Shown: positions 6,849-32,997 of the stretch, piece by piece | Layout: each line of letters starts with the position of its first letter | Numbering within the stretch: position 1 is the first letter of the stretch | Assembly (NCBI GenBank): GCA_034659175.1 | Contig: JAYEGR010000028.1 | Span: 13,156-47,511 of the forward strand | Direction: 5' to 3' | DNA from: Thermodesulfobacteriota bacterium | GTDB taxonomy: Bacteria; Desulfobacterota; Desulfobulbia; Desulfobulbales; DAOVYS01 | Length of the DNA stretch: 34,356 nt | Position numbers and translations under genes: made by a program | Notes under the pieces: model-generated | What the model was told of the DNA's origin: nothing | Database searches by the model: none | The model's input: the letters and a program-made list of their open reading frames with translations, nothing else

Positions 6849-7261
6849 AAGGAGGTGCTCCTGGTAATCACCTTTGTGGCGAAAGGCAGTTTGTTACCCG
6901 CCAGCGTCAGGGCCTTAATGGCAACATTTTCTTCTACTCCCAGCAGTTCATACAGAATCCTGCCGGGTTTGACCGGAGCAACCCAATATTCCGGACTGCC
7001 TTTGCCTTTACCCATACGAGTTTCGGCAGGCTTTTTAGTAATAGGCTTATCCGGGAATACGCGGATCCACATCCTTCCTCGACGCTTGATGGTCCTGTTA
7101 ATGGTTATACGGGCAGCCTCAATCTGCTGGGCTGTCATTTTACCACGCCCTATCGCCTTTAATGCATAATCGCCAAATGAGATCGACGCGCCGCGATTAG
7201 CCTTTCCTCGAAGACGTCCCTTCATCTGTTTTCTGTGTTTTATCTTCTTTGGACTGAGCAT
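6845..7261 (-). CDS. rplP: 50S ribosomal protein L16
   Basis: [12 protein letters not shown] motif. Confidence 0.98.
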
Positions 7262-11090: not shown

Positions 11091-11261
11091 TGGGCCATTC
11101 GGCTTAATGCCGGAAAACAGCTAGAACCATCAAAAAAGTAAATGTTTGGCAGCGCTTCACAGGGAGGTGAGCAGGCTGATCAGCAGATAAGCGCAGACTT
11201 CGATACTTAGGTATGCTGGGCAGCCTGATCGCCTTCCTGTGGAGTGCTGCCGAATATTTAC
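11091..11261 (-). mobile_element. GTAA-ended MITE family G, copy 1 (outer end decayed; no micro-insertion)
   Basis: Reverse complement aligns along its length with 15843-16023; long hairpin at 11138-11261; begins immediately after the rplC stop. Confidence 0.87.
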
Positions 11262-12257: not shown

Positions 12258-13448
12258 TTATTCAATAATTTCGTTAATCACGCCAGCGCCTACTGTGCGT
12301 CCGCCTTCGCGTATTGCAAAACGAAGTTCCTTTTCCATGGCGATCGGCGTGATCAGCGCACCTTCTATGGTCACGTTGTCGCCGGGCATTACCATCTCTA
12401 CCCCTTCGGGAAGCGTTACTATGCCCGTAACGTCTGTTGTACGAAAATAGAACTGTGGACGATAACCGTTAAAAAACGGGGTGTGACGTCCGCCTTCTTT
12501 CTGGCTCAGTATGTAGCACTCAGCCTTGAACTTCGTGTGCGGCGTGATGCTTTTCGGCTTGGCCAGTACCTGCCCCCGCTCTATCTCATCACGCTTGACC
12601 CCGCGAAGCAGAACGCCAACATTATCGCCTGCCTCGCCACGATCCAGGATCTTACGAAACATTTCGACCCCGGTTACCGTGGTCTTCTCGGTATCCTTTA
12701 TCCCTACGATCTCAACCTCTTCGCCTACTTTTATTACGCCCCGCTCTATCCTGCCCGTTGCAACCGTGCCACGGCCGGAGATAGAAAAAACGTCCTCCAC
12801 CGGCATCAAAAAGGGCTTGTCTATATCTCGCTCAGGCTGAGGAATAAAAGAGTCTACCGCATCCATCAGCTCAAAGATGCACTTGTTGGCTTCCTCATCT
12901 TCCGGGTTTTCAAGCGCCTTTAAAGCGCTTCCGGTAATGATCGGAGTGTCGTCGCCCGGAAAATCGTATGAGCTTAAGAGTTCCCGAAGCTCCATGTCCA
13001 CGAGTTCGATAAGTTCTTCGTCGTCAACCATGTCGCATTTGTTCAAAAATACGACTATTGCGGGAACGCCTACCTGACGGGCCAAAAGAATATGCTCACG
13101 TGTCTGGGGCATGGCGCCGTCATCTGCGCCCACAACCAGGATGGCGCCGTCCATCTGGGCGGCCCCGGTGATCATGTTCTTGATATAGTCCGCATGACCG
13201 GGACAGTCCACATGCGCATAATGACGTTTTTCAGTCTCATATTCAACATGTGCTGTTGCGATTGTTATTCCACGTTCCTTTTCTTCAGGCGCCTTGTCAA
13301 TGTCGTCAAACGCGGTGAATTCCGCTAATCCCTTATAGGACAACACCCTGGTTATTGCCGCGGTCAACGTGGTCTTCCCATGGTCAATGTGACCTACAGT
13401 CCCAATATTCACATGCGGTTTGGTTCGTTCATATTTCGCCTTTGCCAT
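12258..13448 (-). CDS. tuf: Elongation factor Tu (str-operon copy)
   Basis: [17 protein letters not shown] and NKCD GTPase motifs; 396 aa. Confidence 0.99.
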
Positions 13449-15842: not shown

Positions 15843-16023
15843 GTAAATATTCGGCAGCACTTCACAGAAAGGCGATCAGGCTGCCCAGCATACCAAAGTA
15901 TAGCTGGTCAGCCTGATCACCTCCTGTGAAGCGCCCCGCAGGAAGTGCCCTTGGGGTGCGCTGCCGAATATTTACAATTTGGTGGTTCCAGCTATTTTTT
16001 CCGGCATCAAGCCGAATAGTTAC
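15843..16023 (+). mobile_element. GTAA-ended MITE family G, copy 2 (181 bp, IS66-like ends)
   Basis: GTAAATATTCGGC ... GCCGAATAGTTAC termini; perfect 8-bp direct repeat CGACCTAC at 15835-15842 and 16024-16031; additional internal right end finishing at 15975. Confidence 0.92.
15931..15960 (+). repeat. Micro-insertion type 1 with GCG duplication
   Basis: GCG-CCCCGCAGGAAGTGCCCTTGGGGT-GCG interrupts the right arm of the hairpin; the homologous site in copy 11091-11261 is empty (GTGAAGCGCTGCC). Confidence 0.87.
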
Positions 16024-16126
16024 CGACCTACTTGCTTTACCCTGAAAAATGCTGCCTGATAATTGTTTCCGTCAGATGGTCAGGCAGGATACATTCTCAT
16101 GACAGATTTGAACCAGCAAATCTTGT

Positions 16127-16155
16127 ATAATAACCTAAAACGACATTCCTGTCAA
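16127..16155 (-). promoter_or_regulatory. Sigma70-type promoter between rpsG and fusA
   Basis: Minus strand TTGACA-17 nt-TATTAT. Confidence 0.75.
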
Positions 16156-16173
16156 CGGGAGATAATTTTGCCC

Positions 16174-16647
16174 TTACCACCGATAATGGGCAAAGGCCTT
16201 GTTGGCTTCGGCCATCCTGTGCGTGTCCTCACGCTTCTTAACAGAGGCGCCGCGGTTGTTGTATGCATCCTGCAACTCAGCCGCAAGCTTTTCAGCCATG
16301 AATTTCCCGGAATGTTTCTGTGAAAAATTGACGATCCACCTGATTGCCAGGGCATTACGCCTTTCAGGCCTGACTTCCACCGGAACCTGATATGTAGCGC
16401 CGCCTACCCGCCTGGACTTTACTTCCACGCGGGGCCGAACCTTGTCCATGGCCTTTTCGAAAACCGCAATCGGATCCTCTTCGGAAATTCTTTTTTTCAG
16501 AATATCCATTGCATCGTAAAAAATCCGCCTGGCAATACTCTTCTTGCCTTGCAACATAATCCCGTTGATAAATTTAGATACCAACAGGCTGTTATATAGC
16601 GGATCAGGGATGCCTGGTCTCTTTGCGATCAGTTTACGTCTCGGCAT
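16174..16647 (-). CDS. rpsG: 30S ribosomal protein S7
   Basis: [12 protein letters not shown] and [15 protein letters not shown] motifs. Confidence 0.99.
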
Positions 16648-16762
16648 TGTTCACTCCTATTCGCAATAAAGGAGCCCTGTATCAGAACATTGCCCATCCT
16701 CAAAAACCCCAACCAACGGACAGGCATTTGTTCCCGGACCCCTTTTTATCTCCGGCTGAATA

Positions 16763-17134
16763 TTATTTAGGCCGTTTTGCTCCATACTTGGAACGACCCT
16801 GTCTGCGGTCACTCACACCCAGTGCATCCAGAGTTCCACGAACTACATGATATCGCACGCCCGGCAGATCCTTTACCCTTCCACCCCTGATGAGCACCAC
16901 TGAATGTTCCTGGAGGTTGTGTCCAATGCCGGGAATGTATGATGTCACCTCTATCCCGTTTGTAAGCCTGACCCTGGCAACCTTACGCAAGGCGGAATTA
17001 GGCTTTTTCGGCGTAGTGGTGTAAACACGAACACACACACCTCTTTTCTGAGGTGACCCTTTTAGTGCAGGCGTGTTGGTCCTGCTTAAAATCTTCTTGC
17101 GTCCGTGCCTCACGAGTTGATTGATAGTCGGCAT
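16763..17134 (-). CDS. rpsL: 30S ribosomal protein S12
   Basis: [13 protein letters not shown] and [13 protein letters not shown] motifs. Confidence 0.99.
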
Positions 17135-17166
17135 AAATCAAAGCTCCAAAAAACTTATTTAACTAA

Positions 17167-17223
17167 AGGTTCCGAGTTCAAGGTTCATCGGAATTTTTTC
17201 CTATTTAACCCTGAACCCTGAAC
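17167..17223 (+). repeat. GGTTCAG/CTGAACC heptamer palindrome (family C)
   Basis: AGGTTCCGAGTTCAAGGTTC-ATCGGAATTTTTTCCTATTT-AACCCTGAACCCTGAAC. Confidence 0.82.
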
Positions 17224-17267
17224 ACAGCATCTTGAAACGAGCTGTGTAATAAACGGAAGAACAGAGA

Positions 17268-17296
17268 TTAATAATAGAACCTGCCCTACTTGTCAA
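17268..17296 (-). promoter_or_regulatory. Probable rpsL (str operon) sigma70 promoter
   Basis: Minus strand TTGACA-17 nt-TATTAA(T), just downstream of the rpoC terminator; imperfect -10. Confidence 0.5.
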
Positions 17297-17325
17297 GGAC
17301 AATCTGTGATCCCATTCCGACAACC

Positions 17326-17368
17326 AAAAAATAACCCGCTGACACCATCCACATCAACTGGTTATTTT
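17326..17368 (-). terminator. Probable intrinsic terminator after rpoC
   Basis: Imperfect stem AAAATAACCAGTTGA / TCAGCGGGTTATTTT ending in a T run on the minus strand. Confidence 0.55.
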
Positions 17369-17459
17369 GCGATTTTTTATGCCATATACCATGGATTTCA
17401 CCAGGCAAGCATTACAAGTCCGTCAACTCCTAAACATCTGAACCCTTGTGGAATCAGGT

Positions 17460-20400
17460 CTATGTGAGTTCCCAGTTAGCTGTATAAGGCTCAATGCCTG
17501 TGCCGGCGGGAACCAGACGGCCCATGATCACGTTTTCTTTAAGTCCGACCAGGTGGTCAACGCGTCCAGCCATGGCTGAGTTTGTGAGGACCTTGGTGGT
17601 CTCCTGAAACGATGCGGCTGAAATAAAGCTGTCCGTACTCAAGGATGCCTTTGTCACTCCAAGAAGAAGCGGCTCAGCCACAGCGGCCTTGCCACCCGTT
17701 TTTACAATCTTTTCATTCTCTTCGACAAACCGCCACCACTCAACCTGCTCACCCAACATGAACGTACTATCGCCGACATTCGTAATCTGTACCCGGCGCA
17801 GCATCTGGCGAACTATCACTTCGATATGCTTGTCATTAATTTTAACGCCCTGCAGACGGTAAACCTCCTGGATCTCGTTGACAAGAAACTTGGCCAGTTC
17901 CTTGACTCCCTTAACGCGCAAAATGTCGTTGGGGTTGGGTGACCCATCCATGAGCGCTTCACCGGCCCTTACATAATCTCCCTCGTGGACGCCGATATGT
18001 TTGCCTTTGGGAATCAGGTATTCCTTGGAATCACCTAAGTCAGGCGTGACAATGACCCGTCTTTTGCCCTTAAGATCCTTGCCAAAGCTCACCCTGCCGT
18101 TGATCTCCGTGATGATCGCATATTCCTTGGGTTTACGGACCTCAAACAATTCGGCTACACGCGGCAGACCACCTGTAATGTCCTTGGTCTTGGTAGTTTC
18201 TCTCGGAATTTTTCCCAATATCTTGCCGGGTTCGATTAAGTCCCCTTCCTTAACGTTTATAATCGTTCCTACAGCCAGTGAATAGCGGGCAATGGACCCT
18301 GATGGGAGCTTAGTGCTCCGGCCCCTGGAGTCCTTGATCGTGATTCTCGGGTTCATCTGTGTTGCCCTGGACTGAATAATTACGTAACTGGACTTGCCGG
18401 TTATCTCGTCCACGCGCTCCTGCATGGTCGAGCCTTCAACGATATCACCGAACTTGATCGTACCGCCGATTTCGCTCACTATTGGAATCGTGTATGGATC
18501 CCAGTCCGCAAGCAGGGCGCCGGACTCAACTTCCGAACCATCGGCAACCAGCATCTGAGCGCCGTAGTTCAGGTGATAACGTTCACGTTCTCTGCCCTGC
18601 GGTCCGATGATGCCGACCTCTCCATTCCTGTTCATGACCACTATTTTTCCTTCATGATTGGTCACCACATGAAGATTTTCGTATTTAACAACCCCTGAGT
18701 GCCTGGTCCGGATTTCCGCCTGCTCAACGGTCCGACTGGCTGTCCCGCCTATATGAAATGTCCGCATGGTAAGCTGGGTTCCAGGCTCACCGATCGACTG
18801 AGCCGCGATTATACCGATCGCCTCCCCCTTATTGACCATGTGTCCCCTTCCGAGGTCACGACCGTAACACATTGCGCAGACGCCGCGTTTTGACCTGCAT
18901 GTCAACACTGAGCGAATAAGTACCCGGTCCAATCCTGCATCCTCGATCAACTTGACACTGTCCTCCGTGATCTGCTTATTTGCATGTACCAGGACATTGC
19001 CTGTAAAAGGATCTTCAATATCCTCTAAAGCCACACGGCCTAAAATACGGTCCCCGACCTGTTGAATTATCTCGCCTCCCTCCATGAGCGGTTCCATCTG
19101 GATGCCGTCCATTGTGCCGCAGTCGTGCTCTATAATGGTTGAGTCCTGGGAAACATCTACAAGCCGCCTTGTGAGATAGCCGGAATTCGCGGTTTTAAGC
19201 GCTGTGTCGGCAAGACCTTTTCGGGCGCCGTGGGTTGAGATGAAGTACTCCAGTACGCTTAAGCCTTCGCGGAAATTAGCCTTGATCGGCGACTCGATAA
19301 TCGCGCCGGACGGTTTGGCCATCAGTCCACGCATGCCGGCCAGTTGCCTGATCTGATCCTTGCTGCCCCTTGCGCCTGAGTCGGCCATAATAAAAATGGG
19401 GTTGAAACTAGGGAATTCCACGAGATTTCCTTCCTTGTCCCTCAGGTACTGGACGCTCATCTCCTGCATCATTTCCTTGGCAACCTGATCGGTTGACTTG
19501 GACCAGATGTCGACCACCTTGTTATATTTTTCACCTGCTGTAATGAGACCGTCACTGTACTGCTGTTCAACGTCCATGACCTCATTTTCCGACCGTGCAA
19601 GAATATCCTCTTTCTGTGTCGGAATCAGCATATCGCTTATGGAAATGGAAATGGCCGCCCTGGTGGCATACTCATACCCCATGTCCTTCAGCCGGTCGGC
19701 AAGGATTACGGTATTCTTGACCCCGGCATGGCGATAAGAATAGTCAATCAGCTTGGCCAGTGTTTTTTTGTTCATCACCTTGTTTACAAAACTGAACGGT
19801 ATAGCATCAGGCAGCAGCTCGGACACCAGGATTCGACCCACTGTGGAATCAATGATCTCGCCGTTCATCCTGACCTTTATTTTTGCCTGCAGGTGTGCTT
19901 CATCGTACGCATATGCAACCCCGACTTCGTCCGGAGAACTGAAGCATCTGCCCTCGCCCTTGACATTAATCCGCTCTCTGGTCATGTAGTAAAGGCCGAG
20001 CACTATGTCCTGACTCGGAATAATAATCGGCTCGCCATGGGCGGGTGAAAGGATATTATTTGTGGACATCATCAATACCCTGGCCTCCATCTGGGCCTCC
20101 ACGCTCAATGGGACGTGCACCGCCATCTGGTCCCCGTCAAAATCAGCGTTAAAGGCTGTACACACAAGCGGATGGAGTTGAATGGCCTTGCCCTCGATAA
20201 GTACCGCCTCAAATGCCTGCATTCCAAGACGATGGAGAGTCGGCGCACGATTTAAGATTATCGGGTACTCTTTTACCACGTCTTCCAGGACGTCCCAGAC
20301 CTCTTTGGTGCCCTTTTCCACCATCTTTCGAGCGCTTTTGATAGTTGTAACATATCCTAACAGCTCAAGTTTATTGTAAAGAAAAGGCTTAAAGAGTTCG

Positions 20401-21521
20401 AGCGCCATCTTTTTGGGCAGTCCGCACTGGTGAAGCCTGAGATGTGGGCCGACCACGATAACGGTCCTGCCTGAGTAATCCACGCGCTTACCTAAAAGAT
20501 TCTGGCGAAACCGTCCCTGTTTACCTTTCAGCATGTCGCTTAAGGACTTGAGAGGTCTCTTGTTGGGGCCGGTGATGACCTTTCCTCTACGGCCGTTGTC
20601 AAACAAAACGTCCACAGCCTCCTGAAGCATCCTTTTTTCATTTCGAATAATAATCTGTGGCGCATCCAGCTCCAGAAGCCTTTTGAGACGGTTATTCCGG
20701 TTGATGACGCGTCTGTATAGATCATTCAGGTCGGATGTGGCAAACCGACCGCCGTCAAGGGGCACAAGAGGTCTGAGGTCAGGCGGCAGCACGGGAATAA
20801 CCTCAAGGATCATCCATTCAGGGCGGTTCCCGGAATCACGAAAAGCCTCCACGATATTAAGCCGCTTGGCATATTTTTTACGCTTTGCCTCGGAACCGGT
20901 CGTGCGCATATCTTCTCTTAATACAATAGAGAGGGAACTCAAATCCAGATTTTTAAGCATTTCTCTGATTGCAGCAGCGCCGATACCTACGGAAAATTTT
21001 CCTGTAAACTCCTCTTTTGCCTGGCGGTAATCATCTTCGCTTAAGAGAGTGGCCACAGGAAGAGCGTCTGTCTCGGATTTGACTACCACATATGAATCAA
21101 AGTAGAGGACCTTTTCAAGCTCCTTCAAGGTCATGTCCAGGAGGTGTCCGATCTTGCTCGGCAGGCTCTTTAAAAACCAGATATGGGCAACAGGCGCTGC
21201 CAGCTCGATGTGTCCAAGCCGTTCACGTCTGACCTTTGACTGAATCACCTCAACGCCGCACTTTTCGCATACAACCCCCCGGTGCTTCATGCGTTTATAT
21301 TTACCGCAATTACATTCGTAATCCTTCACCGGCCCGAATATCTTGGCGCAGAAAAGGCCGTCTCTCTCCGGCTTAAAGGTACGGTAGTTGATAGTCTCCG
21401 GCTTTTTGACCTCACCGTGAGACCAGTCGAGGATCTTTTCCGGAGATGCCAATGTGATACGTACTGAATTGAATTTTACAGGCTTCTTGGCTTTGGCAAA
21501 AAAACTGAAAAGTTCTTCCAC
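17460..21521 (-). CDS. rpoC: DNA-directed RNA polymerase subunit beta'
   Basis: [12 protein letters not shown] catalytic motif and N-terminal zinc finger; GTG start at 21521 has a purine-rich RBS (the ORF-track extension to 21557 runs into a repeat). Confidence 0.99.
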
Positions 21522-21543
21522 GGCTTCCCCCCTAAAAAAATTT

Positions 21544-21630
21544 GGTTCCGGGTTCAAAGTTCAAAGGTTCAGAGGTTAATCGAAATTTTTTCCTATTCAA
21601 CCCTGAACCCTGAAATCTGAACATGGAACC
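21544..21630 (+). repeat. GGTTCAG/CTGAACC heptamer palindrome (family C, longest copy)
   Basis: Five GTT(C) units, then ATCGAAATTTTTTCCTATTC, then AACCCTG-type units. Confidence 0.85.
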
Positions 21631-21689
21631 TTTAATCGCATATGGTCGAAAAATTGATTGATTTCCAATCCTGATCAAGGCTGTCCAGA

Positions 21690-21851
21690 AATAAACGATC
21701 ACAGGTGCTGTAGCTGCACGCGCCCAACGGAAGTGCCCTTGGGGTATGATCAGGGCAATCAGCTATAGCTCACCTATGCTGGTTGCCCTGATCACGTGCA
21801 GGTAAGCGAGCCTGTGAGACTCCGGATGCACAGTGCCTGTGATCGTTTATT
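21690..21851 (-). mobile_element. MITE family H copy (decayed ends) overlapping the rpoB stop
   Basis: 16-bp inverted repeat AATAAACGATCACAGG / CCTGTGATCGTTTATT; shares CATCCGGAGTCTCRCAGGCTCGCTTACCTGCACG with 25985-26205 in the opposite orientation. Confidence 0.85.
21720..21748 (+). repeat. Micro-insertion type 1
   Basis: GCG-CCCAACGGAAGTGCCCTTGGGGT-ATG splits the CTGCACG|TGATCAG arm; the partner arm CTGATCACGTGCAG is uninterrupted. Confidence 0.87.
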
Positions 21852-24800
21852 CGTCCAGCAGTTCCATGTCCAGGCACAATCCCTGGAGTTCCTTTACAAG
21901 GACGTGGAACGACTCAGGCAGCCCTGCTTCTAAAAAATTGTTGCCCTTGACGATCCGTTCATACATCCTTGTCCTGCCTCCCACGTCATCCGACTTGACA
22001 GTCAGAAATTCCTGCAGCGTATAGGCGGCGCCATATGCCTCCATGGCCCAGACCTCCATCTCACCCAGACGCTGACCGCCGAACTGGGCCTTGCCTCCTA
22101 AAGGCTGCTGGGTAACCAGCGAGTACGGGCCTGTGGACCTTGCATGGATCTTGTCGTCAACCAGATGGTGCAGTTTCATCATATACATCGTGCCGACAGT
22201 AACCGGGTTATCAAATTTTTCACCGGTCATTCCGTCGTACAGCAATGCCTGACCCACTACATCCAGTCCGGCGTCCGCCAGCATAGTCATGATTTCGCCT
22301 TCCCCTGCGCCATCAAAGACCGGGGTTGCCATATGGATTCCCGTCCGCATCTCCCGGGCCCATGCCAGCAAGTCATCTTCACTCATGTCCTTGGTCAGGT
22401 CCTTGTACTCTTCAGATGAATAGACCGCTTCCAGAGCCGTTTTAAGATCCTTGACCCGGTTCCGGACAGCCAGCTCATAAAATCTTTCTCCAATCTGTTT
22501 GCCGGCCCGGCCTAAGTGAACCTCCAGCACCTGGCCGACATTCATACGTGAAGGCACGCCCAGGGGATTTAATACAATATCAACAGGTGAGCCGTCCTCG
22601 AAAAAGGGCATGTCTTCTTCCGGAAGAAGCCTTGAGACAACACCCTTATTCCCATGGCGGCCGGCCATCTTATCACCCACGGAAAGTTTTCTTTTGGTGG
22701 CAAGGTAGACCTTGACCATCTTGATAACGCCCGGAGGAAGATCATCGCCTTTCCGAAGACGGTTGACCCGGGCCTCGTGCTCGTCCCTGACGTGTTTCAC
22801 CTGACTTTTAAAACGTTCATTTATCAGATCCAACTCGCCTTGAAATTTTTCACGGTCCGTGAAATCAATCTCAAGTAAGGCCGAAAACGCCATCTTTTCA
22901 AATATTTCTTCAGAAATATTCTCACCTTTTTCAAGAATGAGTTCTCCTTCTTCAGAAAGTATGGCGGATGCTGTTGTTTTATCCTTGAGCATAGCCGCCA
23001 TTTCTTTGCGAACAGCATTTTCAAGGCAGTTGATCTCGTCCTCCGCATCCCGGTCAAGCTCAGCGATTTCTATCTTCTCAATCGCCAGAGCACGTTCATC
23101 TTTTTCAACACCCTTTCTGGAAAAAACCTTGGTATCAACTACAGTGCCCTCAACACCAGGCGGTACCCGGAGCGACGTATCCTTGATATCTCCCGCCTTT
23201 TCGCCGAAAATGGCCCGCAAAAGCTTTTCTTCCGGTGAAAGCTGGGTTTCTCCCTTTGGAGTGACCTTGCCGACCAGGGTATCCCCTGACCTGACCTCGG
23301 CCCCGATCTTAACTATTCCGCTTTCATCAAGATTCCTTAAGGTCTCCTCGCTCACATTAGGGATGTCCCTGGTAATCTCCTCTTTCCCAAGCTTTGTGTC
23401 ACGGGCAACCGTCTCAAACACCTCAATGTGGAGCGAGGTAAATGTGTCGTTTTTTAAAAGCCTTTCACTGATCAGAATTGAATCCTCAAAATTAAATCCG
23501 CGCCACGGCATAAAGGCAATAGTGACATTTTTACCGAGAGCAAGTTCTCCGCACTCGCATGCAGGGCCGTCTGCCAGTATGTCGCCTTTAGTTACTCGCC
23601 GGCCGGGAATAACACACGGCACCTGGTTAAAGCAGGTATTCTGATTGGATTTTTTATATTTTTCCAGCCTGTAGACTCCAATGCCCGTGGCAAAATCGTC
23701 AGTTCCAGGCTCATCATACCGCACTACAATACGGTTGGCGTCAACCTCTTCCACAACCCCGTCTCCGCCCGACAAAAGGCAGACACCGGAATCACGGGCA
23801 ACCGTTTTCTCATATCCGGTACCTACAATAGGCGCGGCACAACGCAGCAGGGGCACTCCCTGACGCTGCATGTTGGAGCCCATCAGCGCGCGGTTGGCAT
23901 CGTCATTCTCTAAAAACGGAATCAGAGACGCGGCCACGCTGACCAACTGATTAGGGGATACATCCATATAGGTGACCCTATCAGATGTGGTCATAACCAC
24001 CTCGCCTTCTTCTCTTGCAATAAGAGAATCGCCTATGATGCGATTTTTTTTATCTAATTCAATCTTTGCCGGGGCGATGATTTGCCCCTTCTCCTCAAGT
24101 GCGGTCATGTAGGCCACATCTTCCGTGATTTTTTTATTCTCTACTTTACGGTAAGGAGTCTCGATGAACCCGAACTTGTTGACCCTTGCAAAGGTTGCCA
24201 GGGAGACAATTAAACCGATATTCGGCCCTTCAGGGGTCTCAACCGGACAGATCCGTCCATAGTGAGTCGGGTGGACGTCCCTGACCTCAAAACCGGCCCT
24301 CTCCCGTGAGAGACCGCCGGGGCCGAGAGCGCTGAGTCTCCTCTTATGGGTCACTTCAGAGAGCGGATTCGTCTGATCCATGAACTGAGATAACTGACTT
24401 GTGCCGAAAAATTCCTTGATTGCCGAAGTTATAGGCTTAGGGTTGATCAGGTCATGGGGCATGAGGGTGTCGATCTCCTGGAGACTCATCCTCTCACGGA
24501 TTGCCCTTTCCATGCGCACGAGTCCCATCCTGTACTGGTTTTCCACCAGTTCGCCAACGGTCCTGACACGCCGGTTACCCAGATGATCGATGTCGTCAAT
24601 CGGCCCCTGGGCATCCTTGAGACGCGCCAGGTAGCGGACCGCAAGCACGATGTCATCCTTGGTCAAGGTCCTTTGAGCAATGTCCGTATCAACGCCTAAT
24701 TTTGCATTTATCTTGAAACGGCCCACCACGGACAGATCGTATGTGTCTGAATTAAAAAAAAGATTATTAAAAAAGGTGGACGCTACTTCAATTGTCGGCG

Positions 24801-25938
24801 GGCTGCTTGGCCGAAGGCGCCGGTAGATTTCGATCAGAGCGTCATCCGTGGTACCCACCTTGTCCTGTAACAGGGTCTTACGAAATGAATCCGTTACATT
24901 GATCCCGTCAATAAAAAGTATTTCAAAGGAGGAAATCTTGGCCTCGACCATGCTTTCAAGGATTTCTTCCGTTAATTCGCCGTTGCATGAAAGCAAGACC
25001 TCGCCGGTCTCAGTATTAATGATGTCGTGTGCAATATAAGCGCCTATCAGTTCATCCAATTTAATCTCAAGTTCGGTGATTCCGGCGGCAACCAGCCGCT
25101 TGGCCAGGGCCTTGCCGATCTTACGGTTCTTCTTGGCAAGGAGGTCCCCGGTTTCAGGATGGATAAGATCAAAGGTGGCGCGCTTGCCGATTGCAAGTTC
25201 AGGGTCAAAGGTTTTGCGGAATCTCTGGCCGTCAATCGAGACCTTTTCAATATTGTAAAAGATCCTCAAAAGTTCCTCGGCGTTGTATCCAAGCGCTTTT
25301 AAAAGCGTAGTTACAGGGAATTTCCTGCGCCTGTCAATGCGGACGTAGAGGATGTCCTTGGCGTCAAACTCAAGGTCAATCCATGATCCGCGAACAGGGA
25401 TAATTCTTGCGGAGTAGAGGAATTTGCCAAGGGAATGGGTTTTGCCTCCGTCATGGGTATAAAACAGGCCGGGTGAACGTTGAAGCTGACTCACAATGAC
25501 TCTCTCGGTACCGTTTATCACAAAGACACCGGCCTTGGTCATAAGAGGAATACTTCCCAGGTACACAGCCTGTTCCTTTATATCACGGATATTCTGGACC
25601 TCGCCTTCCTGGTCGATATCATAGGTGACCAGCCGTACCGTGATCTTGATCGGAACCTCGTAGGTCATGCCCCTTTCAACACACTCCTCCACGGTATACT
25701 TGGGTTCTCCAAAATTATAACGGACGTATTCCAGGGTACACGCCCCGTTAAAATCATTTATGGGAAAAACACTGCGGTAGATGCCTTCAATCCCGGCGTC
25801 GTCCCTCTGGTCAGGGTCTTTCAAACGCTGGAGAAATTTTTCATAGGAAAGTCTCTGCATCTCGATAAGATGCGGCATATCCACAACCTTTTTACTCTTT
25901 GCAAAACTCTTTCTGACTCTTTTCATCGTCTTCATCAA
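21847..25938 (-). CDS. rpoB: DNA-directed RNA polymerase subunit beta
   Basis: [21 protein letters not shown] and [12 protein letters not shown] motifs; start could be TTG at 25938 or ATG at 25935. Confidence 0.99.
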
Positions 25939-25984
25939 GCGCTGCCCTCATGTGTAGTCCATAAGACTGCGAAACAAAAAAATC

Positions 25985-26205
25985 GTAATCGTCCACAGGT
26001 ACCCCATCCGGAGTCTCGCAGGCTCGCTTACCTGCACGCGCCCAACGGAAATGCCCTTGGGGTGCGATCAGTCCGGTTCACATAGGTTTTACTAAGTTCG
26101 CCGGCCTGGAGTTTATGCCCTTTAGGGTACACATATGGGGCACCTGTGAACGATTACATACGGAGGAATCTGCTAAAAATAGGGGGACCCTCTCTGAACG
26201 TTTAC
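25985..26205 (+). mobile_element. GTAA-ended MITE family H (221 bp, IS66-like ends)
   Basis: GTAATCGTCCA ... TGAACGTTTAC termini; perfect 8-bp direct repeat AAAAAATC at 25977-25984 and 26206-26213; additional internal right end finishing at 26157. Confidence 0.9.
26038..26066 (+). repeat. Micro-insertion type 1 with GCG duplication
   Basis: GCG-CCCAACGGAAATGCCCTTGGGGT-GCG; the homologous arm in 21690-21851 is empty. Confidence 0.88.
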
Positions 26206-26222
26206 AAAAAATCCAGCCCTTA

Positions 26223-30929: not shown

Positions 30930-31006
30930 TGGCAGGCCAGGAGGGAGTCGAACCCCCAGCATCCGGATTTGGAGTCCGGCGCTCTGCCAATTAGAGCTAC
31001 TGGCCT
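30930..31006 (-). tRNA. tRNA-Trp (CCA)
   Basis: Cloverleaf; anticodon arm CCGGA-CTCCAAA-TCCGG; encoded CCA end. Confidence 0.97.
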
Positions 31007-32521: not shown

Positions 32522-32597
<76 letters not shown>

Positions 32598-32611
32598 AAT
32601 CAGCATGATGA

Positions 32612-32687
32612 TGGAGCGGGAAACGGGTCTCGAACCCGCAACCCTCAGCTTGGAAGGCTGATGCTCTACCAATTGAGCTATTCCCGC
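32612..32687 (-). tRNA. tRNA-Gly (TCC)
   Basis: Anticodon arm TCAGC-CTTCCAA-GCTGA; CCA end. Confidence 0.97.
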
Positions 32688-32743
32688 CATGTTAAAAAAA
32701 ATTGTAAATGGTAAGGATTACATGCATCTGTGATCGGTTATGT

Positions 32744-32828
32744 TGGTGGAGGGGGGAGGATTTGAACCTCCGAAGGCGTCGCCGACAGATTTACAGTCTG
32801 TTCCCTTTGACCACTCGGGAACCCCTCC
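32744..32828 (-). tRNA. tRNA-Tyr (GTA)
   Basis: Anticodon arm ACAGA-CTGTAAA-TCTGT; long variable arm; CCA end. Confidence 0.97.
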
Positions 32829-32921
32829 ACATAATAAAAAAATTCTTTACAGCCTGGAATTTTACAGGTCGGAATATCAGAATTTACGTCCTCTAATCGA
32901 TCTGAAAATGGCGTTCACTCC

Positions 32922-32997
32922 TGGAGCTGGCGATGGGACTTGAACCCGCAACCTGCTGATTACAAATCAGCTGCTCTGCCAATTGAGCTACGCCAGC
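32922..32997 (-). tRNA. tRNA-Thr (TGT)
   Basis: Anticodon arm GCTGA-TTTGTAA-TCAGC; CCA end. Confidence 0.97.

Follow-up and report, generated by a model that had tools for sequence, protein, structure and literature searches.

A dispersed 26-27-nt non-coding micro-element nested in miniature transposable elements of a Thermodesulfobacteriota bacterium and present in several bacterial phyla

We analyzed a 34,356-nt stretch of DNA (the window: forward-strand positions 13,156 to 47,511 of contig JAYEGR010000028.1, here C28) from the Thermodesulfobacteriota bacterium assembly GCA_034659175.1 (here G000), a 2.65-Mb draft genome that is 87.9% complete, and focused on a short repeat that interrupts three of its miniature inverted-repeat transposable elements (MITEs). 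This repeat, hereafter the unit, is a discrete non-coding micro-element of 26-27 nt, dispersed with sharp and constant boundaries over dozens of unrelated sequence contexts in several bacterial phyla. Most of its copies are made passively by the transposition of the host MITE. Beyond this passive copying, the unit has probably also been inserted independently; the complete explanation, in which a mostly hitch-hiking micro-element is rarely inserted in trans via a single-stranded DNA (ssDNA) form, stands in our judgement at about even chances.

The unit follows the formula C-GCCC(C)-NNN-GGAAGTGCCCTTGGGGT-R and occurs in two length forms, CGCCCC-NNN-GGAAGTGCCCTTGGGGT-R with 27 nt and CGCCC-NNN-... 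with 26 nt. The 17-mer GGAARTGCCCTTGGGGT is found in the window at 15941, 21729 and 26047, always on the plus strand, while shuffled versions of the window are expected to give 0.01 matches. These are the three places at which a sequence-only reading of the window had located an insertion, and the flanks which it gave, GCG...GCG for copies 1 and 3 and GCG...ATG for copy 2, were found as well. The extent of the inserted DNA was obtained by comparing filled with empty sites (Table 1). The two uninterrupted strings quoted as empty counterparts in the earlier reading occur once each in the window, and empty B-type sites such as CTGCACGCGATCAG, used for copy 3, are present elsewhere in G000. For copy 2, the comparison with the empty arm leaves zero ambiguity at the junction (target ...G/TGATCAG, filled ...GGGGTA/TGATCAG, with the slash marking the point of insertion here and below), and therefore the fixed GCG duplication cannot be the rule. 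Likewise, the three copies in the window provide no evidence for three events, as opposed to the up to three independent insertions considered at first; copies 2 and 3 both have the AAC form and lie at the same site in related hosts.

Table 1 Unit copies, host MITEs and empty target sites in the window.
Feature	Position	Strand	Description
Unit copy 1	15932..15958	+	27-nt form CGCCCC-GCA-GGAAGTGCCCTTGGGGT-G; inner right arm of family-A MITE; boundaries based on filled versus empty family-A sites, empty = CTGTGAAGCGCTGCC
Unit copy 2	21721..21746	+	26-nt form CGCCC-AAC-GGAAGTGCCCTTGGGGT-A; left arm of H/C-type MITE
Unit copy 3	26039..26064	+	26-nt form with GGAAATG (one substitution); B-type MITE
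Host family-A MITE of copy 1	15843..16024	.	GTAAATATTCGGCAGC-type ends
Host H/C-type palindromic MITE of copy 2	21689..21853	.	Ends AAATAAACGATCACAGG / CCTGTGATCGTTTATTT
Host B-type MITE of copy 3	25985..26211 (approximate)	.	~227-nt repeat recurring in sister genomes
Empty target site, other family-A MITE copy	11148..11160	-	GTGAAGCGCTGCC, once in window
Empty target site, partner arm of copy 2's own MITE	21788..21801	-	CTGCACGTGATCAG, once in window

Allowing up to two mismatches and using the reversed sequence as a control, we counted 83 copies of the unit in G000 (control: 0). A gapped flank search assigned at least four MITE families as hosts, each with filled and uninterrupted members. 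Family A carries the unit in the context ...CTGTGAAG/unit/CGCTGCCAAACATTTAC, and the related family D carries it too; a short derivative, A', is devoid of the first 9 nt of the unit and is most simply accounted for by deletion at a shared CAG. The B-type context reads ...CTG[CA]ACG/unit/[CT]GATCAG. In C-type hosts the unit occupies two different positions, GCTGTG/unit/CGTGATCAGGG and GCTGTGCG/unit/CGATCAGGG, and in one element on contig C121 the opposite arm holds a further unit in inverted orientation at the mirrored site. A few copies lie in still other contexts. Among 140 flank-anchored family-A sites, 113 were empty (2 nt between anchors), 23 were filled (29 nt) and 4 showed other arrangements. 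Empty members were also found for the B, C and D families, and a cleanly bounded B-type MITE is represented by 1 filled versus 18 empty members. Real coding sequences of G000 are free of copies; 25 long open frames do span copies but represent upstream extensions of real genes or spurious frames. The view of the unit as a discrete, ultra-small and foldable element without an open reading frame (ORF), nested in different MITE families whose homologous sites are uninterrupted, had already been reached from the window alone and is upheld at the genome level.

In addition to the main form, G000 contains a second micro-element variant, GCCGCGAA-GCAAATGCCCTTGGGGT, at C21:44195 and C52:10831, which includes the mini-hairpin word GCGAAGC. 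These two loci were rejected as singletons, as the variant is itself repeated and nested in a MITE: it is dispersed in the sister genomes and in other families (relatives G011 and G013, extracted loci L079-L084 and L086), and a B-type MITE of G011 (L084) contains it at a distance of 2-3 nt from the position that the main variant occupies in G000.

Next to the source genome, the unit is widespread although patchily distributed. In the window's order, 26 of 61 genomes carry the 17-mer (one mismatch allowed; reversed controls gave 0 or 1), with 67-92 copies in each of the three sister genomes (G001, G002 and G003, which together with G000 make up the four genomes of the window's genus), up to 44 in other families and none in many genomes. 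A phylum-wide sample of 201 evenly chosen genomes, searched with the plain 17-mer, yielded six carriers. The scan of prokaryotes, based on one genome per species and a pattern with 21 specified bases, returned at least 117 stretches in other taxa, as read from the record titles. Among the matches listed are Thermodesulfobacteriota, many Candidatus Thiodiazotropha, Thiomicrorhabdus, Chromatiales, Thiotrichales, Robiginitomaculum, a Betaproteobacterium, Sulfurovum, many metagenome-assembled genomes (MAGs) of Ruminococcus, Oscillospiraceae and Clostridia, and two Patescibacteria. This amounts to at least five phyla, namely Thermodesulfobacteriota, Pseudomonadota (Gamma-, Alpha- and Betaproteobacteria), Campylobacterota, Bacillota and Patescibacteria, so that the initial description as an element of a sulfate reducer proved too narrow. 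Copy numbers are high in distant carriers as well, with 85 on the complete chromosome of a Thiodiazotropha and 78 in an isolate of Thiomicrorhabdus. The phage records gave no match to the unit; there were two matches in viral contigs and four in plasmid records, of which only a Sulfurovum megaplasmid is convincing, and nothing mobile was found near the unit in the annotated region of this plasmid. The patchy, cross-phylum distribution of a nearly identical sequence speaks for horizontal spread together with sequence constraint. After merging similar flanks, the copies represent 57 independent contexts (56 before two more loci were added). The possibility that all copies share one flanking context, which the earlier reading had asked about, is thereby excluded, and no larger insertion sequence (IS) ending in the unit motif was found.

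Two distant carriers show further small repeats beside the unit. In Thiomicrorhabdus (L204-L223), about half of the host MITE copies have a further insert of ~20 nt, ACCCTCAAGGGGCACCTAGA, on the other strand and ~35 nt downstream of the unit; it resembles the unit core and has filled as well as empty sites, a hint that such micro-inserts form a wider superfamily. In a Parcubacteria MAG (L089, 647-765), the short intergenic region with the unit also holds two small GCCC-loop-GGGC hairpins, CCCTAAAGGGCA and GCCCAAAGGGCGC, and an inverted repeat, TCAGGAAT...ATTCCTTGA, flanks the unit so that the latter forms its apex; this structure is possibly a terminator.

The junctions were compared across 213 distinct copies. 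The base following GGGGT is a purine in all 213, and the base preceding CGCCC is G in 156, A in 35, T in 21 and C in a single copy. These two flanking bases are uncorrelated (57% matching pairs versus about 49% expected). At the level of contexts, a site preference of the form (T)R/Y(R) emerged, with T at -2 in 27/56, a purine at -1 in 54/56, a pyrimidine at +1 in 50/56 and a purine at +2 in 44/56. About half of the contexts have T-R at the end of the left flank, and the unit also ends in T-R, which constitutes a preference and not a fixed word; the unit's own 3'-to-5' joint (T-R/C-G) is itself built like the preferred target. Microhomology at the junction is 1.9 nt on average, compared with 0.65 nt for flanks shifted by 6 nt, and ranges from 0 to 7 nt, with 11 of the 57 contexts having none at all. 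In G000, the stretch shared between target and unit start measures 4 nt in family A, 3 nt in B and C1, 2 nt in D, or 0. With a junction repeat whose length depends on the target (0 to 7 nt) and with flanking bases that are uncorrelated, a true target-site duplication is absent, and the GCG duplication read from the window is not a property of the element. For the same reasons (11/57 junctions with zero repeat, uncorrelated bases) the unit was rejected as a classical MITE dependent on a DDE transposase.

Several genomes contain head-to-tail arrays of the unit with a period of 27, for example the relatives G031 (3 units), G015 and G026, a Betaproteobacterium and, repeatedly, Thiodiazotropha. Without a spacer, such arrays do not qualify as CRISPR repeats. 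The Thiodiazotropha MITE offers two sites, ...GGGTT/GCGCCTG... and ...CTCCTC/GCGCCTT..., each with 0-4 identical units per MITE copy; the target shares 5 nt with the unit start, and recombinants between the two sites exist.

The top strand of the 27-nt form, folded as RNA, is predicted to adopt one dominant hairpin with two G.U pairs and a bulge (-19.3 kcal/mol, z = -2.8, 89% of the ensemble); folding of the complement is less favourable. The fold with DNA parameters is weak, but such parameters do not model mini-hairpins. The variable triplet of the unit, which is closed by C and G, reads G-N-A in 20/24 contexts of the 27-nt form and 17/33 of the 26-nt form, versus 1/16 by chance, and all four bases are seen at N. 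According to a 2026 review, GNA is the only one among all 64 GCNNNGC loops to form an extraordinarily stable DNA mini-hairpin, and GNA mini-hairpins are present at initiation sites of ssDNA replication and transcription, including CCGAAGG in the 27-nt minimal ssiA of RSF1010 (PMC13037366). The G-N-A rule, as read from the aligned copies, points to a single-stranded DNA form of the unit. Rfam contained no match for the unit at the gathering threshold or at E<=1; the only hits were generic hairpin matches to the MITE body, far below threshold.

We further looked into the question of whether copies arise with their host or by gain of the unit itself. The copy-bearing MITEs in the window and in a second region of 20 kb (L241) are missing from sister genomes, with overlaps of 9-15 bp at the empty sites. 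The family-A MITE of copy 1 is missing at the orthologous site in G002 and G003, where a 9-bp overlap fits a target duplication. For the H/C-type MITE of copy 2, the G003 orthologue carries the same insert, G001 is without the MITE and G002 has another arrangement. Around the B-type MITE of copy 3, the sister genomes have 65-175 nt and the window ~665 nt. Metagenome runs with window sequence (20 runs in 8 studies) are all from cold seeps or marine sediments. Among the short contigs obtained from four runs, one from an independent sample spans the family-A site without the MITE, so that this MITE is polymorphic, whereas the joints near 26025-26063 are repeat-confounded, show no match to a simple empty site and speak neither for nor against mobility. 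Since the copy-bearing MITEs are strain-specific or shared in an already filled state, and since the Thiomicrorhabdus copies occupy a single site (see below), most copies are passengers. MITEs in the window's genus are very active: those at 6979-7155, 2772-2877 and 18418-18650 of L241 (G000:C27) are each missing from at least one sister genome, and where the ~2772-2877 element lies in G000, G001 has a different insertion of ~359 nt, suggestive of a hot spot for insertions.

Hitch-hiking combined with loss is unlikely to account for the whole pattern. Deletion cannot explain the different positions of the unit in one MITE family, the insertion in the mirrored arm, or the different variants at neighbouring positions in different genomes. 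For family A, a host tree was built from 53 near-full-length MITEs (16 filled, 37 empty). The filled state changes 13 times on this tree, compared with 13.7 +/- 1.3 for shuffled labels (205/500 shuffles as low), and 9 of the 10 clades with SH-aLRT (approximate likelihood-ratio) support >=85 contain both filled and empty members. Pairs of filled and empty elements are up to 99.3% identical, and filled copies are on average 90.7% identical to each other. The diversity of the unit in the 16 filled copies is 0.014, whereas the 101 host windows of 27 nt all reach at least 0.053 (mean 0.108); the unit is thus about 4-8 times less diverse than its hosts, with 0/101 windows as low. Repeated gain or conversion fits family A better than loss, because old inserts surviving recurrent deletion should diverge like their hosts. 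These comparisons of sequences suggest that the unit was gained repeatedly in family A.

Our preferred explanation for such gains is that the unit itself would be inserted, rarely and in trans, through a single-stranded DNA form. The single strand would fold by way of the C(GNA)G mini-hairpin and a pairing of CCC(C) with GGGG that includes a conserved G.T, owing to which good folding would be limited to the top strand. If units were circular or in tandem, their joint (...GGGGT-R/C-GCCC...) would have the form of the preferred target, and strand transfer would proceed by nicking and joining, for which HUH-type enzymes represent the closest known chemistry. The logic of an HUH-type nick-and-join reaction is consistent with a lack of duplication, a target similar to the end of the element and self-adjacent insertion leading to arrays; an ssDNA reaction of this kind also fits the strand-specific fold, the GNA mini-hairpin and the absence of a reverse transcriptase. 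The steps are inferred, the intermediate, the enzyme and a de novo event lying outside what was observed, and the HUH-like route in particular is possible but doubtful.

A number of observations weigh against this explanation. The sampled Thiomicrorhabdus copies (20/20) all occupy a single position in a single MITE, a case of pure hitch-hiking. The orthologue comparison with G001-G003 revealed no shared MITE that differs by the unit alone, and the copy-bearing MITEs examined are strain-specific. In the host form B1, unit diversity is 0.078 and 12/78 host windows are as low, so that the unit is not more uniform than its host; in B2, 0/89 windows are as low, but one non-unit insert and flanks from outside MITEs contaminate this set. 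For family A, the tree was computed from ~150 columns with a 'quick' search, and gene conversion between MITE copies could produce the appearance of repeated gain. Distant copies were mostly retrieved with patterns of the intact unit, and because these require an intact unit its apparent invariance is partly a matter of ascertainment; as a control, the ends were unchanged when copies were anchored on the central 15-mer alone. Furthermore, MAG labels are partly unreliable, as a contig labelled 'Promethearchaeota' (L096) carries a G000-type MITE. This 3.9-kb contig of a supposed Promethearchaeota archaeon probably comes from a bacterium and was mis-binned; its unit-bearing B-type MITE hardly differs from those in the window's genus. 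The A, B and C MITE families are also present in a MAG labelled 'Pseudomonadota bacterium CSMAG_1789'.

In the same direction point the searches for a partner gene. Domain surveys and neighbour clustering linked no enzyme to the unit. Y1_Tnp, which is near-ubiquitous, is found in 56/61 relatives irrespective of the unit and in 4/5 distant carriers. G000 does encode IS200-type genes and genes similar to those of RAYTs (transposases associated with repetitive extragenic palindromes, REPs), but the repeats on either side of its four RAYT-like genes are of the GGGGTCAGAGTAA or GGGTCAGGTCTTGA type, and not the unit. All-against-all clustering of the ORFs within 1.5 kb of copies showed no enriched protein family; in the largest cluster 10/58 members were near a copy, versus a background of ~10%. 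At L138 and L147, no transposase was present among the ORFs adjoining the fixed-distance context. Neither a gene-orientation bias in G000 (37 vs 39 and 44 vs 34) nor, by inspection and with the origin not mapped, a replichore strand bias in the complete Thiodiazotropha chromosome was observed, although hitch-hiking blunts both tests. As for the RAYT-like Y1 transposase genes themselves, those at G000:C97:32863-33588 and G000:C96:33729-34475 (further ones are on C54 and C127) have inverted GGGGTCAGAGTAA / TTACTCTGACCCC flanks; two are 97.5% identical, and a doublet of the same repeat, similar to a REPIN (a REP doublet forming a hairpin), follows downstream of the C97 gene. They look like a separate REP/RAYT-type system.

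Many of these points would be expected if the unit were a passive module, acquired long ago by a small number of MITE lineages and unable to insert by itself. The spread would then be due to MITE transposition, recombination or arm conversion and horizontal MITE transfer, while empty sites would arise through recurrent and precise slippage deletion across the hairpin between short direct repeats. Besides the single site in Thiomicrorhabdus and the B1 diversity equal to that of the host, the youth and strain specificity of copy-bearing MITEs, the AAC form and site that B and C2 have in common in related hosts, the recombinants between two unit sites of one MITE, and the short direct repeats (GC to GCGCC) flanking many copies, which favour slippage loss, are in line with this possibility. 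It is, however, difficult to reconcile with 57 unrelated contexts that have identical sharp boundaries across phyla, with different positions within one MITE family, with 11/57 junctions devoid of a repeat, and with the family-A data, in which every host window is several-fold more diverse than the unit although old inserts would be expected to show the reverse. We consider a purely passive module rather improbable.

The main alternative to the HUH route in terms of chemistry is an enzyme-free copy-choice process. Here, the mini-hairpin would stall replication, the nascent strand would switch by GC-rich microhomology, copy one or more units and switch back, and a reverse slip would delete units. 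In agreement with this, microhomology is variable (0-7 nt) and tracks the similarity of the target to the 5' end of the unit, arrays consist of integer numbers of identical units, and no dedicated enzyme was found; moreover, mini-hairpins cause polymerase pausing, as stated in the above review (PMC13037366). Two arrays in unrelated genomes, L085 (G015:C53) and L166 (Betaproteobacterium), end in a partial third unit exactly after ...GGAAGTGCCC (...GTGCCC), and in both the sequence after the partial unit is able to pair with GCCC. This end, beside a flank able to supply alternative microhomology, may mark an alternative switch or cleavage point and is a further argument for copying. Pure structure, on the other hand, leaves the invariance of unpaired positions (GGAAGTG...) across phyla unexplained, as well as why the unit spreads instead of any other hairpin, and the 11/57 junctions without microhomology also disagree with copy-choice, which we rate as unlikely.

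A related idea, namely that a small hairpin RNA is reverse-transcribed and integrated, possibly with telomerase-like addition of repeats from a template with short overlap, would make use of the strong, strand-specific RNA fold with its conserved G.U pairs. It could also account for the arrays of 1-4 identical units with an overlap-like junction and for the 5'-truncated derivative A', which is equally well explained by deletion at the shared CAG. The G-N-A rule, however, points to a DNA mini-hairpin, and the distribution of reverse transcriptases does not match that of the unit. The RVT_1 domain is present in 37/61 relatives, but profile searches did not detect it in G000, G002 or G003, three of the four genomes of the window's genus, which have 67-92 copies each, nor in G004 or in G031, which is 99% complete and has 23 copies including the 3-unit array. 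In G001 only weak partial matches were obtained (best E 1.4e-15, open frames up to 233 aa), and RVT_1 was not detected in Thiomicrorhabdus or the two Patescibacteria. Insertion through RNA therefore appears very improbable.

Returning to an insertion through ssDNA, a broader version considers the unit as a pan-bacterial selfish DNA of 27 nt with a double mini-hairpin, which has no transposase of its own and would be copied into T-R/Y-R sites by a conserved host activity acting on ssDNA during replication or repair, such as primase, polymerase, topoisomerase or a ubiquitous HUH enzyme. This would explain both a sequence frozen across phyla and the lack of a co-occurring partner gene; as a whole, we regard this version as an unlikely one. 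Should it hold, no smaller mobile element with a range across phyla would be known.

The uniformity of the unit could also be the consequence of a function in cis, for the cell or for the carrier, with spread as a by-product of mobile DNA. The unit could, for example, serve as a priming or promoter signal in single-stranded DNA, or as a hairpin that binds a protein or stabilises an RNA. The extreme constancy across phyla, including unpaired bases, the family-A unit that is more uniform than its hosts, the occurrence of C(GNA)G mini-hairpins in ssDNA initiation sites and promoters, and the location of the G000 copies outside real coding sequences would all agree with selection. Against it are the missing orientation bias relative to genes, the lack of a consistent neighbouring gene and of an Rfam family, the patchy presence with most relatives having no unit, and the fact that neither the architecture of RSF1010 ssiA nor matches to such plasmids were found. 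As the sole explanation this is quite unlikely; it is compatible with mobility, and a selected cis-function may add to sequence constancy beside insertion.

Among known systems, the closest in kind are the small dispersed repeats (SDR1-8) of Nostoc and relatives, which Elhai et al. reportedly described in 2008 (Genome Res 18:1484) as being 21-27 nt long and for which an RNA intermediate is said to have been favoured. The resemblance to these repeats, already drawn in the sequence-only reading, holds at the level of size, nesting and contexts: both are in the same size class, dispersed in many contexts, nested in minitransposons and hairpin-forming, and both can adjoin or lie within their own copies and have no coding capacity and no known enzyme. 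The two were likened by description. They differ in that reverse transcriptase does not co-occur with the unit, in contrast to the RNA intermediate said to be favoured for Nostoc, and in range, as SDRs are confined to Nostocaceae according to a citing paper (PMC5861425) and the unit is found in at least five phyla.

REPs and REPINs, the substrates of RAYTs, are similar to the unit in being short, extragenic, hairpin-forming and often located in or beside other repeats. REPs are thought to move as ssDNA by a trans-acting HUH enzyme without target duplication. Characteristic of them is an unpaired GTAG or CGTC tag on a near-perfect palindrome of 20-40 bp, and most are species-specific, as described in PMC3733652. 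The unit, by contrast, has no GTAG/CGTC tag (it starts with CGCCC and ends with GGGGT-R), folds into an asymmetric hairpin whose unpaired bases are invariant, and does not differ between phyla. Given the absent tag and the other repeats flanking the RAYT-like genes of G000, it was rejected as a REP or REPIN mobilised by RAYT.

Like miniature elements derived from IS200/IS605, the unit shows no target duplication, and it may further share with them a target resembling the element end, a single active strand and imperfect hairpins that mark this strand. Such elements have distinct left and right subterminal hairpins and a fixed tetra- or pentanucleotide target, and they are about 100 nt or longer. 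The unit differs by its single hairpin of 26-27 nt, by a mere T-R/Y-R preference and by the lack of a replichore bias. A C(GNA)G mini-hairpin, present in the unit as CC-GNA-GG, is finally also a feature of ssDNA initiation and promoter hairpins (RSF1010 ssiA, phage G4-type origins and phage N4 promoters). The GAA form of the unit reads CCGAAGG as in ssiA, whose minimal DNA likewise measures 27 nt according to PMC13037366. However, the mini-hairpin of ssiA caps a symmetric stem in a plasmid origin, whereas that of the unit is placed near its 5' end with a stem that is not extended by the flanks, and the unit is dispersed by the dozen and barely present in plasmid and phage collections. As CCGAAGG is restricted to the GAA form, the stem is not extended and such plasmids gave no matches, an RSF1010-type single-strand initiation signal, of the kind that a RepB'-type primase recognises, was rejected.

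Apart from the MITEs and the unit, the window contains a cluster of five tRNA genes on the minus strand (30933-31006 and 32525-32997; Rfam tRNA, 58-73 bits).

A paper library, searched with the sequence of the unit and by keyword, yielded no description of it, the sequence search returning mammalian primers only; figures and supplements were outside this search, and supplements of repeat surveys could list the motif. Altogether, the unit belongs to a known but barely studied kind of element, and what sets it apart is the cross-phylum range, the target preference, the arrays and the mini-hairpin architecture. Mobile DNA is normally traced to the gene of an enzyme, and the smallest accepted bacterial elements (MITEs, REPINs) comprise 50-200 nt and are lineage-specific. 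To our knowledge, elements of 21-27 nt have been reported only once, from one cyanobacterial family and with no mechanism. The unit is common, nearly letter for letter, to sulfate reducers, sulfur-oxidising symbionts, rumen Firmicutes and Patescibacteria. For practical work with such genomes, it is of relevance that the unit breaks assemblies, with many copies at contig ends, that its presence or absence in MITEs could be misread as phylogenetic signal, and that it can reveal mis-binned contigs. As two of the carriers, Thiomicrorhabdus sp. Milos-T2 and Sulfurovum mangrovi, are cultured isolates, the movement of this micro-element is directly testable.

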